From assembly GCA_045641025.1 (NCBI GenBank), contig JAZUGD010000018.1, forward strand, positions 1 to 30,811: a stretch of DNA of 30,811 nt, in the 5' to 3' direction. This document shows positions 9,796 to 13,022 of the stretch, one piece after another (within the stretch, counting starts at the first letter, position 1; every line of letters starts with the position of its first letter). The DNA is from Eubacteriales bacterium (GTDB lineage Bacteria; Bacillota; Clostridia; Oscillospirales; CAG-272). The position numbers and the translations under genes were made by a program. The notes under the pieces are model-generated. The model was not told where the DNA came from. It made no database searches and was given only the letters and a program-made list of their open reading frames with translations.

Positions 9796-11826
9796 ATGGA
9801 AAATAACAAAATCCCGGGAGACGTGCCCGAAAGACCGTCCGGGACGCGGCACGTACGAGGTACGGAGCAGGGCGACACGGTAATGATACCGGTAACAAAA
9901 CGCCCCGATTCGGCAAAGCCGGGCGTTACCCGTGTGCCGAAGCCGACTCCCGTGCCGAGACCCACTCCCGTAACCCGTCAGATGCCCGTATCGGGAAGCG
10001 GTACACAACGTCCCGTGCAGAGGGGTACGGTTCCGCGTCCGACGCCCGTATCACGTCCGGTTCCCACCGGCACCGACATGAACGCCGAAACGCGGCAGAT
10101 TCCCGTGCAGAGAAGTGCACCTCAGGTAAGCCGCCCTGCACCTCAGTCCGCAGTCAGACCGCAGACCGACGTAGGCGGTGAAACGAGACAGATTCCCGTG
10201 CAGAGAAGCGCACCGCAGGTGAGCCGCCCTGCACCTCAGTCCGCAGTCAGACCGCAGACCGACGTAGGCGGTGAAACGCGTCAGATTCCCGTGCAGAGAA
10301 GTGCACCTCAGGTAAGCCGTCCCGCACCTCAGTCTGCAGTCAGACCGCAGACCGACGTAGGCGGTGAAACGAGACAGATTCCCGTGCAGAGAAGTGCGCA
10401 GACAAGCCGTCCCGCACCTCAGCACTCTGTCAGACCGCAGACCGACGTCGGCGGTGAGACGAGACAGATACCCGTGCACAAGCCCGCTGCGTCCGATAGC
10501 GGAGAAATGTCCGCCACCCGTCCCGTCAAGCTGAAGACCGAACTCAACCCCGAGGTAACCGCGAAGGTAAATCCCGAGGCTACCGTCGTAATAAAAACGC
10601 CCGCACCCGTTGCCGTAAACGGCGGCGCCGACGACGGCGGTACGAGACCGATGCATTTGCCGAAAGCCGAGCCCGAGAAACCGAAAAAAGAAAAGGCTTC
10701 CTTCTTCTCAAGGCTTCAGACTGCGGGAAGCGAGAGCGGCGGCAACACCGTCATGAGCATAGTCAAAGCGGTGGTTTACATGGTGCTCGTGCTTCTGGTT
10801 TCCGTCGGCATATCTCTTTTCATTATCCTCGTCGGCAACGACGTTTTCGCATTTGTCAAAACGGACGAGGAGATAACCGTCACGATTCCCGAGGATGCGG
10901 GTATAGAGGACGTCGCGGATATCCTTGCCGAAAACGGAGTAATCAAGTATCCGGGCATCTTCAAGTTCTACGCGTCGTATAAGAATGACGACGGCAAGTT
11001 CCTCGCGGGAACTTATACCGTAACTCCCGCCACCGACTACGAGGACCTTCTGTACGGCTTCAAGGAGCACGAACCCGAGGGTACGTCGTGGATAACGATT
11101 CCCGAGGGCTTTACCACCGACGAGATTATAAACCTTCTCGTCGAGTCGGGCATCGGTACCAAGGAGAAATACGTTGACGTCATCAACAATTACGATTTCG
11201 ACTACTGGTTCGTTGACGAGCTTGACGCGACCGACTGGAAGAGCACGGGCCGCTTCTACCGTCTTGACGGATACCTTTTCCCCGATACGTACGAGTTCTA
11301 CAATCAGTCGTCCGAGAAGACCGTTATAAACAAGCTGCTTGCGCGCTTCAACGTCATATACGGTGACAAATATAAGGAGACCGCAACGTCCGCGGGCTTC
11401 ACCACCGACCAGGTGCTTATCATTGCCTCCATGATAGAGAAGGAGGCGGGCATGGCGGCGGACTACAACACCGTTTCCTCCGTCTTCCGCAACAGACTCG
11501 CAAGCGACTATTATCCGCGTCTCGAGAGCGACGCTACGATACTGTACGCAATCCACCACGATACGGGTACCCGCCCGAATACGTGCACGGGCGAGGACCT
11601 CAAATACGACTCTCCGTACAACTCGTACCTGAACGACGGGCTTCCTCCGGGACCCATCGCAAACCCGAGTGCGAGTGCGATAAACGCCGCGCTGACCCCG
11701 GCAGACACGAACTATTATTATTTCGTATCGTACGAGGGCAAGACCTACTTTGCCTCGACCAACGAGGAGCACGAAGCAAACAAAGCCTACGTGAACGGAC
11801 TCCGCGAGCAGTCGGCACAGCCGTAA
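9796..11826 (+). CDS. mltG: Endolytic transglycosylase MltG with a long repetitive cytoplasmic N-terminus
   Basis: Single TM near aa 320-348, then a YceG domain: TIPEGFT, LDGYLFPDTY, ASMIEKEA (catalytic Glu), SPYNSY, GLPPGPIANPS, YYYFV. Confidence 0.95.
   Translation: MENNKIPGDVPERPSGTRHVRGTEQGDTVMIPVTKRPDSAKPGVTRVPKPTPVPRPTPVTRQMPVSGSGTQRPVQRGTVPRPTPVSRPVPTGTDMNAETRQIPVQRSAPQVSRPAPQSAVRPQTDVGGETRQIPVQRSAPQVSRPAPQSAVRPQTDVGGETRQIPVQRSAPQVSRPAPQSAVRPQTDVGGETRQIPVQRSAQTSRPAPQHSVRPQTDVGGETRQIPVHKPAASDSGEMSATRPVKLKTELNPEVTAKVNPEATVVIKTPAPVAVNGGADDGGTRPMHLPKAEPEKPKKEKASFFSRLQTAGSESGGNTVMSIVKAVVYMVLVLLVSVGISLFIILVGNDVFAFVKTDEEITVTIPEDAGIEDVADILAENGVIKYPGIFKFYASYKNDDGKFLAGTYTVTPATDYEDLLYGFKEHEPEGTSWITIPEGFTTDEIINLLVESGIGTKEKYVDVINNYDFDYWFVDELDATDWKSTGRFYRLDGYLFPDTYEFYNQSSEKTVINKLLARFNVIYGDKYKETATSAGFTTDQVLIIASMIEKEAGMAADYNTVSSVFRNRLASDYYPRLESDATILYAIHHDTGTRPNTCTGEDLKYDSPYNSYLNDGLPPGPIANPSASAINAALTPADTNYYYFVSYEGKTYFASTNEEHEANKAYVNGLREQSAQP
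10087..10476 (+). repeat. In-frame tandem repeat, 93-nt unit (31 aa ETRQIPVQRSAPQVSRPAPQSAVRPQTDVGG), about 4.2 copies
   Basis: Units start at 10087, 10180, 10273, 10366 (90-nt variant) and 10456 (partial); copies differ mostly at synonymous sites. Confidence 0.97.
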
Positions 11827-11831
11827 CGAGC

Positions 11832-11859
11832 GCAGAACGCAGAGTGTAGAGTGCAGAAC
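11832..11859 (+). repeat. Degenerate heptamer tandem repeat
   Basis: GCAGAAC GCAGAGT GTAGAGT GCAGAAC, starting 5 nt after the mltG stop. Confidence 0.7.
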
Positions 11860-12001
11860 TAATGTAAAAAACCGTTCGGATTTATTTGCGACAGCCTGAT
11901 AAGGATGTTTTTCGGGATGTGGATTTTGTGCGGTAAAATCCGATGCTCGTTATGGATGTGGACAAATTAGAATTTGTAAGGCTGTCCAGGGAAGGAATAG
12001 A

Positions 12002-12328
12002 ATGACAAAAAGGAAAGGAAAAAAGCAACCAAACATACGTATTGTACTTTTAGCTTACTTTCATCGCTATGGATGGATAGCCTTGATGCTTCTTCTTATG
12101 TATATCACAAAAAGTAAGTATGCCATTGGCATAAGTTTAATCGCATTCTCAATTTGGTCATTCTTTGGGTATATATTCCGATGGAAGCATATTTATTGTT
12201 CAAACCAGAATGCCTATCATCAGCCCATGACACCGGACAAGATTCGTTGGGATACTGTCAAAAAAATAGATGCCTATGGCGTTCCTGCTATATTTATGAT
12301 TTTGGGGGTTGCATTATTATTGGTTTAG
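12002..12328 (+). CDS. Hypothetical small membrane protein (about 3 TM, 108 aa), horizontally acquired
   Basis: SD GGAAGGA upstream; basic N-terminus, hydrophobic segments near aa 13-35, 40-59 and 91-108; AT-rich codons unlike its neighbours. Confidence 0.8.
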   Translation: MTKRKGKKQPNIRIVLLAYFHRYGWIALMLLLMYITKSKYAIGISLIAFSIWSFFGYIFRWKHIYCSNQNAYHQPMTPDKIRWDTVKKIDAYGVPAIFMILGVALLLV

Positions 12329-12364
12329 ATTATATAGTGCAAATCCCGGTTTGTTGAGATGAAA

Positions 12365-12405
12365 AAATAACCCTCAGAAAAGAAACTCTTTTCTGAGGGT
12401 TATTT
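12365..12405. terminator. Bidirectional intrinsic terminator (19-bp perfect stem)
   Basis: AAATAACCCTCAGAAAAGA-AAC-TCTTTTCTGAGGGTTATTT, between the convergent orphan gene and udg. Confidence 0.85.
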
Positions 12406-12455
12406 GTTTCAAAAAACATCCTTATGGGGCTCAACCCTTCCGAACGGTTTTGTTT

Positions 12456-13022
12456 TTATTCTTCAAAAGGATTGTAATTTCCGTCGAGGTAGGCTTTTAT
12501 GTTCTTCATGTCGGTGAACATGTCTTCTTTTCTTCTCGGGTCGCGCAGGAGCGCCGCGGGGTGGAAGACCGCCGTCATGACGAAATTACCCTTCCTCACA
12601 AATTTTCCGTGCTCTTTTGTAATCTTGAAATCGGGAGAAATCAGCCTCATCGCCGATATTCTGCCGAGGCACACGATTATCTCGGGGCGGATGAGCTTCA
12701 CCTGCTCGCGCAGGTAACCGATGCACGCGTCCTGCTCCGCGGGGAGCGGGTCGCGGTTTTTCGGCGGGCGGCATTTCAGTATGTTTGCGATATATACGTC
12801 CTCACGCGGAATGTCAACGGCGCGAAGGTACGTGTCAAGCAGTTTTCCGGCGGCACCGACGAACGGTACGCCGGAGAGGTCCTCTTTTTCTCCGGGAGCC
12901 TCGCCTACGAACATAAGCCGCGCATCGGTCGAGCCGGTACCGAACACGCAGTTCGTGCGGCTTTCGCACAGCGGGCAGGCGGTGCATTCCCGGCAGGTTT
13001 TTTCAAGCTCTTCCCAGTTCAT
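12456..13022 (-). CDS. udg: Uracil-DNA glycosylase, family 4 (Fe-S type)
   Basis: CRECTACPLC Fe-S ligands, GEAPG, KCRPP, HPAA. Confidence 0.96.
   Translation of the reverse strand: MNWEELEKTCRECTACPLCESRTNCVFGTGSTDARLMFVGEAPGEKEDLSGVPFVGAAGKLLDTYLRAVDIPREDVYIANILKCRPPKNRDPLPAEQDACIGYLREQVKLIRPEIIVCLGRISAMRLISPDFKITKEHGKFVRKGNFVMTAVFHPAALLRDPRRKEDMFTDMKNIKAYLDGNYNPFEE

Follow-up and report, generated by a model that had tools for sequence, protein, structure and literature searches.

The closest published case to the locus considered here is IS1272/TnSha1 of staphylococci. These IS1182-family elements insert into hairpins, many of them confirmed terminators, with no sequence specificity and no target duplication (PMC4923244). 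TnSha1 carries a passenger gene together with the IS1272 transposase, and its insertion cuts within the stem, with loss of part of the hairpin (Furi et al., 2016, PMC4923244). The cassette described below is likewise a Firmicute element with a passenger gene, found inside hairpins of arbitrary sequence, but it keeps both arms, apparently inserts in the loop, and has no transposase.

Loop insertion also recalls IS1397 and ISKpn1 (IS3 family), which insert into the loops of REP/BIME palindromic units; these are autonomous, produce 3–4 bp duplications, and use one family of target palindromes. At the present locus too the target is the loop of a dispersed extragenic palindrome, but each site has an unrelated stem, a duplication could not be demonstrated, and the genome's single rve protein is part of an unrelated IS. 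Multi-copy elements with terminal inverted repeats and no transposase are familiar as mobile insertion cassettes (MICs, such as MIC231 of Bacillus cereus), which carry passenger genes, and as MITEs (Correia, RUP), of which the Correia elements carry promoters and terminators. The cassette family is similarly transposase-less, repeat-bounded and multi-copy; unlike these elements, it appears to be targeted by structure to terminator loops, with a standard promoter/terminator frame (its promoter part putative) around exchangeable ORFs. To our knowledge, there is no parent IS with ends matching the cassette repeats.

Two further comparisons concern gene content. Like integron cassettes, those described here are compact single-ORF units bounded by imperfect palindromes, with similar cargo (acetyltransferases, phosphotransferase-like and small unknown proteins), but they have no linked integrase, attI or attC architecture, and are scattered singly, each with its own expression signals, rather than arrayed. 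Phage morons are low-GC promoter-ORF-terminator units between genes, with no terminal repeats or defined insertion chemistry; the cassette resembles them as a low-GC, self-contained unit between undisturbed genes, with a putative promoter, but cassettes have terminal repeats and were not found in phage/viral collections. What is known already, then, is the MITE or mobile insertion cassette kind of element and the hairpin-targeting kind of transposon. What is unusual is the standard expression frame, the dyad-bounded cargo, and the wide spread in gut Clostridia; no published description of such cassettes was found in the full-text literature searched.

The interval between mltG and udg

The window (the whole stretch of DNA analysed, 30,811 nt) contains a low-GC island between the convergent genes mltG and udg, with GC of 0.34–0.38 inside and 0.52–0.63 outside. 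The features of the region are as follows.

9796–11826, plus strand: mltG (YceG family; Pfam YceG, E 6e-78), the upstream host gene; stop codon 11824–11826
11832–11865, plus strand: heptamer repeats GCAGAAC GCAGAGT GTAGAGT GCAGAAC, then TAATGT; the 5′ part of a dispersed heptamer-plus-hairpin repeat
11868–11880, no strand: left arm of the predicted host terminator, AAAACCGTTCGGA, with an A tract before it; target DNA, 13/13 complementary to 12439–12451
11881–11884, no strand: TTTA, likely remnant of the original hairpin loop (identity to contig L137, below, starts at 11885)
11885–12438, plus strand: cassette of 554 bp, ~37% GC, read as an inserted mobile unit from the L137 identity, contig breaks and GC profile
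11885–11912, plus strand: left terminal inverted repeat TTTGCGACAGCCTGATAAGGATGTTTTT, with core GATAAGGAWGTWTTT; 18/20 complementary to 12412–12431, and matched by the family consensus
11913–11961, plus strand: conserved core of the left module, with a hairpin (GGATTTT-N7-AAAATCC) and GGATGTGGA direct repeats
11962–11977, no strand: left 16-bp dyad ACAAATTAGAATTTGT; after it comes the ribosome-binding site (GGAAGG, 11990–11995)
12002–12328, plus strand: cargo ORF, 108 aa; no Pfam match, and 92 homologues, all unnamed
12339–12354, no strand: right 16-bp dyad GCAAATCCCGGTTTGT, which opens the right module and in most cassettes abuts the stop codon
12362–12408, no strand: the cassette's own predicted bidirectional intrinsic terminator, with 22-nt arms, a 3-nt loop, an A tract before and a T tract after
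12412–12438, plus strand: right terminal inverted repeat AAAAACATCCTTATGGGGCTCAACCCT, from the repeat search and the family consensus
12439–12451, no strand: right arm of the predicted host terminator, TCCGAACGGTTTT, then a T tract; from the repeat search, hairpin copies and folding
12456–13022, minus strand: udg (family-4 uracil-DNA glycosylase; Pfam UDG, E 1.5e-33), the convergent downstream host gene; stop codon 12456–12458

The island is bounded by two pairs of inverted repeats. The outer pair (11868–11880 and 12439–12451) is 13 nt long, 100% complementary, with its members 558 nt apart; the inner pair (11893–11912 and 12412–12431) is 20 nt long and 90% complementary (18/20). The spacers between outer and inner blocks are 18 nt on the left (11881–11898) and 13 nt on the right (12426–12438), and the right outer arm, ending at 12451, is separated from the udg stop codon by only 4 nt. 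No transposase-like ORF lies inside the island, where the sole ORF with a ribosome-binding site is 12002–12328, and inspection of the junctions gave no clear target-site duplication at this copy. On all of these points, namely both repeats and their spacers, the extension of the inner block to 18/20, the 4-nt gap, the low-GC island between convergent genes, and the lack of a visible duplication or mobility gene, the repeat search and the sequence agree with the preliminary description of the interval. An Rfam search of the island found terminator look-alikes only, below threshold, and exact-protein look-ups of udg and of the 108-aa ORF found nothing on record.

The same description put forward two models. 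In the first (a), the island is a MITE-like carrier whose two-domain terminal repeats include both blocks, and which has captured a cargo gene; in the second (b), the outer arms are the ancestral bidirectional terminator of mltG and udg, split by an insertion into its loop, with the island bringing a replacement. Each contains part of the answer.

The outer arms are not confined to this site. Across the 2.13 Mb of the genome, 45 occurrences of the 12-mer CCGAACGGTTTT or its complement were counted, against about 0.25 expected (author's estimate), a recurrence far beyond chance. Intact plain hairpins of the form AAAACCGTTCGG – 4 to 7 nt – CCGAACGGTTTT number 20 in this genome, and many of the genomic hairpin copies, on many other contigs, are preceded by heptamer repeats and TTATGG, much as in the window at 11832–11865. 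At one of these sites (C58:10165–10204) the arms are identical to the window's and joined by a 5-nt loop, making it a paralogous empty site. The split hairpin is one copy of a dispersed heptamer-plus-hairpin repeat, not private to mltG/udg. When the window's arms are rejoined through TTTA they fold into a 13-bp stem with a 4-nt loop (−19.3 kcal/mol), between AAAAAA and TTTTGTTTTT, and so have the stem, short loop, preceding A tract and following U tract of an intrinsic terminator. The hairpin would lie 41 nt past the mltG stop and 4 nt past that of udg. To judge from folding and position, a predicted bidirectional intrinsic (rho-independent) terminator for the convergent pair has been split into the outer 13-bp arms. 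The outer block is target DNA, and its sequence differs at every insertion site, including another site of the same cassette.

Model (b) therefore stands in taking the outer arms as a terminator split in its loop, and in giving the island a terminator of its own (12362–12408); the one refinement is that the split hairpin is a copy of the dispersed repeat. Searching for other copies of the two blocks had been proposed as a check, and did turn up paralogous empty sites such as the one on C58, as well as an inner block that is multi-copy without the outer one. The orthologous empty allele that (b) had led one to look for was not found: in the same-genus genomes searched, mltG and udg lie apart, on different contigs, and no metagenome contig with an empty site turned up. 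Metagenome patterns for the two arms joined by 1–14 nt beside udg, and for the start of the ORF, each had zero matches, and no joint skipping the island, whether an excision joint or an empty site, was present in contigs of four metagenome runs.

Limits and spread of the cassette

The limits of the mobile unit can be placed by comparison with other samples. A Logan contig from another sample (L137) has the same cassette, 98.25% identical over 515 nt starting exactly at position 11885, with a cargo protein 97% identical to the window's 108-aa protein. There it is found behind a GAF-domain gene, adjoining a different arm, AAAAATGGGGTGCCCC. In four gut metagenome runs, contigs with the cargo stop at 12439–12441 and contigs with udg start at 12438. 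From the start of the L137 identity and these contig ends and starts at 12438–12441, the mobile unit is taken as 11885–12438, or 554 bp. An assembly artefact was considered and rejected, since four independent runs contain the cassette and the left junction is bridged by a metagenome contig.

About 85 nt are conserved at each end of the island, here called the left and right modules, and the inner block belongs to these modules. Model (a) was correct to the extent that the island is MITE-like and carries a cargo gene, but wrong to include both blocks in a bipartite terminal repeat: the element has the inner block alone, extended to ~25 nt. In the four runs the left module has a summed contig depth of 850–2300, over dozens of contigs, where the flanks have 5–10, a difference of roughly 100-fold or more. 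Conservation among the metagenome contigs stops at 11966–11979. There are ~16 copies of the left module in this genome and several of the right one, including copies with other arms and contents. The left module was not found in six same-genus genomes (whose housekeeping genes are only ~72% identical to the window's), and is 84–93% identical in five other genera of the family; across this and other genomes the range is 83–93%.

Two other cases are informative about insertion sites. L105 and L107 have one and the same 961-bp cassette in two different, unrelated hairpins, and in a sister species (G172) there is an uninterrupted terminator after the stop codon where G105 has a split hairpin. A metagenome contig of a strain 97% identical to this one spans mltG, the left arm and the left module, with different letters at 11884–11888; this may reflect divergence or a separate insertion.

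Profile searches, with left and right modules paired, identified 55 non-redundant complete cassettes of 409–2119 bp. (BLAST with the right module against five genomes found only the query and was too insensitive; nhmmer was used instead.) Perfect flanking inverted arms of at least 8 nt (8–20 nt) are present in 37 of 46 testable cassettes, as against 50 of 920 random placements in the same sequences (5%); with arms of at least 10 nt, the counts are 29 of 46 and 9 of 920. Each site has its own arms, which carry a run of A to the left and of T to the right, and the family as a whole has hairpins of arbitrary sequence as insertion targets. In 23 of the 33 cassettes with both neighbours called, the upstream gene is co-oriented and the downstream one convergent, and element GC is 0.35–0.46, versus 0.5–0.64 in flanks or hosts. 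None of the complete cassettes contains a transposase.

The terminal-repeat consensus, from 92 unique left ends and 86 right ends, is ~25 nt, and the 25-bp terminal repeat of the family is GSSACAGCCSSATAAGGAWGTWTTT and its complement. The exact left-module 25-mer matches 86 stretches of Clostridia MAGs; since this 25-mer was itself used for searching, part of the conservation of the 25-nt core follows from the method. An animal-gut source is given in many of these records, and their labels include Lachnospiraceae, Oscillospiraceae, Acutalibacteraceae, Bianqueaceae, Anaerovoracaceae, Butyricicoccus, Vescimonas, Faecousia and others. Of 401 genomes of the family, 92 contain the repeat core SATAAGGAWGTWTTT, whereas a backwards-read control was near zero. 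By genus the repeat is unevenly distributed: g16 has it in 7 of 7 genomes, g39 and g40 in 0 of 7. Among the matches listed, all repeat pairs seen are 200–1700 bp apart, and several are non-coding, MITE-like forms filled with heptamer-hairpin arrays. Terminal inverted repeats, lack of a transposase and multiple copies are all MITE characters; small size without coding capacity is not found in the window's cassette, which has a 108-aa ORF with its ribosome-binding site. The plasmid, phage and IMG/VR collections had no match to the left module.

Target-site duplications are similarly elusive at the family level. With strict adjacency, just 4 of 37 cassettes have matching junction sequences of at least 3 nt; junctions are T-rich on both sides, and repeat lengths under relaxed matching equal those of a shuffled-pair control. 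In the L105/L107 pair the number of Ts co-varies on both sides, a hint of duplication.

As read from these alignments, this is a large family of enzyme-less, presumptively mobile cassettes in gut Clostridia, located nearly always in the loops of predicted terminators.

Internal arrangement and cargo

The order of parts is the same in every complete cassette: the left repeat (~25 nt), the conserved core with its GGATTTT-N7-AAAATCC hairpin and GGATGTGGA repeats, the first dyad (ACAAATCAGAATTTGT), GGAGG with the start codon, the ORF or a few ORFs, the second dyad (CAAATCCCGGTTTGTCG), a conserved bidirectional terminator, and the right repeat. All ORFs are on the strand of the left module. The dyads are 6-4-6 palindromes (ACAAAT-N4-ATTTGT), of which the left one is kept in most cassettes directly before GGAGG and the start codon, while the second often touches the stop codon. 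The terminator at 12362–12408 in the window was found by both the repeat search and a terminator scan, with a predicted energy of −30 kcal/mol.

Cargo across the family is very diverse, and includes small membrane proteins, lipoproteins, GNAT and YoaP-type acetyltransferases, nitroreductases, SUFU-like, alpha/beta hydrolase and transglutaminase-like proteins, an APH-family phosphotransferase, and XRE-type regulators. The window's 108-aa protein looks, by eye, like a three-helix membrane protein. Some of its homologues are located in other kinds of repeat-bounded units.

The left-module core is probably a promoter, leader or protein-binding region, with position as the reason for considering a promoter. 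A promoter scan found no convincing canonical sigma-70 hexamer pair in the left module, and an Rfam search of 12 related loci gave no matches. One locus (L140) has a homologous dyad-ORF-dyad unit behind a textbook extended −10 sigma-70 promoter in the position of the left module, so that in both arrangements the transcript would start at about the dyad. A 45-nt stretch of the left-module core is also found near the ends of integrative elements that encode a tyrosine integrase with an arm-binding domain, an actin-like partition protein and Cys_rich_VLP; the module may thus have been borrowed from them, either as a type of promoter or as a site for protein binding.

Several cassettes have unusual arrangements at the dyads, each a single case with no linked recombinase. 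In L061 a right dyad and a left dyad, 9 nt apart, connect two ORF units; in C257 the two dyads enclose nothing; in L097 and L047 the inner unit is inverted; L136 has a hybrid dyad between two genes; and in L102 an IS110-family element is inserted within the dyad, which recalls the IS1111-attC elements. From these examples, and from the dyad-bounded unit of L140, the dyads look like joints for exchange of cargo ORFs.

Mechanism, alternatives and meaning

Taken together, the island is probably a non-autonomous, repeat-bounded element of 554 bp, inserted in the loop of a pre-existing, dispersed bidirectional terminator hairpin. An enzyme acting in trans would recognise the terminal repeats of the cassette and target the tip of a DNA hairpin or palindrome by structure, not sequence. 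The cassette itself would be a self-contained expression unit, with a putative promoter/leader side, ribosome-binding site, ORF and its own terminator, whose cargo ORFs could be exchanged at the dyads. Landing in a loop between convergent genes and supplying a replacement terminator would make the insertion nearly harmless to the host; both host transcripts would still be terminated, which may explain why such insertions persist.

The candidate enzymes were sought in the cassette-rich genomes, among them G105, with 21 repeat ends (~10 cassettes). Searches with PF07508, PF05598, PF01797, PF00665, PF01609 and PF01548 gave unrelated matches only: C50 has an IS481-like element, G105 an IS5 fragment, and G172 a serine recombinase located at a tRNA. 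In these searches neither the window's own genome nor G105 yielded a large serine recombinase, a DUF772 (IS1182-type) transposase or a Y1 transposase.

The mover might be of another class. A possible, though doubtful, alternative is that the cassettes are stripped derivatives moved by the site- or structure-specific recombinase of a larger parent element, not by a DDE transposase; within this same doubtful reading, the candidates would be a large serine recombinase or a tyrosine integrase with arm-binding sites. The 45-nt core near the ends of tyrosine-integrase elements is consistent with the latter, and the GGATGTGGA direct repeats of the left module could be arm-type sites, but those integrative-element contexts are without the terminal repeat. 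Clear 25-bp terminal inverted repeats are more typical of transposases, whereas the failure to demonstrate a target duplication is in keeping with a recombinase. As to serine recombinases, no large one was found in the window's own genome or in G105, and that of G172 belongs to an unrelated, tRNA-integrated element.

Single-strand insertion by an HUH-type (IS200/IS605-like) enzyme, into hairpins extruded during replication or conjugation, is improbable. Hairpin-tip targets, subterminal hairpins at both cassette ends and no demonstrable duplication are all compatible with it, but no Y1 transposase was found in five cassette-rich genomes, the ends are inverted repeats and not the direct asymmetric ends of that family, and 5′ of the left end there is no conserved target word of 4–5 nt beyond the T run.

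Very unlikely, too, is an immobile island, in which the modules would be the shared promoter and terminator of a small-gene regulon and the outer arms a long-range RNA stem. The GC drop of ~20 points and the patchy spread across genera and families, at 84–98% identity where same-genus housekeeping genes have ~72%, both argue against it. The covariation of the outer arms might suggest a conserved closing helix, but the arms carry A/T tracts and exist elsewhere as plain terminators; a co-oriented ORF always has the left module before it and the right module after it, as a regulon would have it, but non-coding members have the same terminal repeats.

Model (a) in its literal form, with the outer 13-bp arms part of the mobile unit, is scarcely tenable: both blocks are inverted repeats at similar spacing here (18 and 13 nt), and the genome also has many copies of the outer 12-mer, but the outer arms occur as plain hairpins without the inner block 20 times, the inner block is beside unrelated arms at 37 other sites, and L137 has a different arm, with identity beginning only at 11885.

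Several known types of element were also rejected. A terminator-homing group IIC intron is not indicated, with no Rfam intron domains and insertion inside the loop instead of just downstream of the hairpin; a Xer/dif module would have 11-6-11 Xer sites, of which there are none; and integron cassettes do not fit, with dyads that have neither the GTTRRRY core nor attC structure, and cassettes that occur singly in terminators. A MIC in the strict sense was set aside because no longer element with these ends was seen among the 21 ends in G105 or the matches listed in the family search, and the left module has no plasmid or phage match. A TnSha1-like transposon was set aside because the arms are intact (13/13) and G000, G105, G056 and G163 have no DUF772 match.

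The loop-inserted, non-autonomous element preferred here may have a second level of organisation. Tentatively, the cassettes could form a two-tier, integron-like exchange system without a linked integrase, in which a small repeat-bounded platform, made of the promoter and terminator sides and lodged without harm in terminator loops throughout the chromosome, receives dyad-bounded single-ORF cassettes through a trans-acting recombinase. The inner cassettes, on the same tentative footing, might be swapped, stacked, inverted or lost at the 16-bp dyads. If true, gut Clostridia would have a distributed common stock of accessory genes, ready for expression and shared between bacterial families.

For this locus alone the consequence is modest, with one small putative membrane protein added between mltG and udg. 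On a wider scale, the cassette family accounts for many contig breaks in Clostridia MAGs, and the 25-bp terminal repeat, split terminator arms and 16-bp dyads provide a search image for the moving enzyme. Such an enzyme would insert DNA guided by structure, and might serve as a tool. If the loop-insertion reading is right, mobile DNA in gut Clostridia has a general safe harbour, independent of sequence, in the loops of intrinsic terminators, and one enzyme-less cassette family moves ready-to-express accessory genes, acetyltransferase, phosphotransferase-like and nitroreductase genes among them, across bacterial families in animal guts.

Dispersed heptamer-hairpin repeats

The terminator hairpin between mltG and udg, in whose loop the enzyme-less cassette lies, belongs to a repeat found on 12 further contigs (C-numbers) of the same genome. 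It is built of two to five tandem GCAGAGT-like heptamers, then TTATGG or TAATGT, then a hairpin, AAAACCGTTCGG...CCGAACGGTTTT. There are 20 intact hairpins in the 2.1 Mb of this genome, and the usual place of the repeat is directly 3' of a gene. Possible identities are a mobile terminator and an RNA-protein binding array.

Heptamer-hairpin repeats and foldback elements in the genome
Window 11832-11880 plus 12439-12460: heptamer-hairpin repeat, window copy
C51, C65, C70, C112, C156, C185, C189, C243, C285, C290, C303, C318: heptamer-hairpin repeat, other contigs
C68:1-480, C270:1-450, C143:7384-7605, C4:1-300: foldback elements
C36:11050-11309, C12:1188-1970, C262:11550-11900: foldback elements, further sites

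In the mouse-gut metagenome run X1, a 97% identical strain has the same hairpin occupied, with different letters at the junction (11884 A to C, 11885 T to A, 11886 T to C, and 11888 G to A, 11887 being the same); this could reflect an independent insertion or local divergence. In the neighboring mltG, the N-terminal 320 aa of the product (window 9796-10755) are rich in Pro, Arg, and Thr and contain a tandem repeat of about 31 aa.

Cargo and its replacements

In some cassettes of this genome the cargo place is taken by long foldback elements, made up of GCATTCA or GCGGAAT heptamer arrays and inverted segments (for example, GACGGATGAGTAG / CTACTCATCCGTC and AAGCCTTCCC / GGGAAGGCTT). A search of Rfam gave no matches for them. 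One arrangement, at C262:11510-12030, runs from an intact hairpin through a foldback element and a right module to an extra 3' arm only (CCCGAACGGTTTT), a layout that does not fit simple insertion into a loop.

Homologues of the 108-aa cargo protein on three contigs (L141, L142, and L143) have another repeat frame around them, whose motifs include CCGCATACCGAGGGGG and GTGGACATTCACGGCATCGTCTCGACCCACGTGGAG, and may represent a second cassette family. Among them, the gene and its upstream sequence are identical in two samples, with different DNA downstream.

Cassette parts and other mobile elements

On L102 (JAZQOC010000137.1; 1235-2830 as oriented), a multi-gene cassette has an IS110-family element inserted within its left dyad; the element encodes a 405-aa transposase with the N-terminus MISVGIDVSK. 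Insertion at a dyad is reminiscent of the IS1111-attC elements, whose targets are integron attC sites.

Seven MAG contigs (L075, L096, L072, L053, L115, L116, and L087) also have the left module's 45-nt core, within integrative or plasmid-like elements in which both GGGTATTCAGGGG..CCCCTGG and the TCCACACC..GGTGTGGA hairpin come before it. Adjoining genes encode actin-like, Cys_rich_VLP, DUF6076, and AAA_25 proteins and tyrosine integrases. Possible roles of the core are those of a promoter, a transfer origin, or an arm site.
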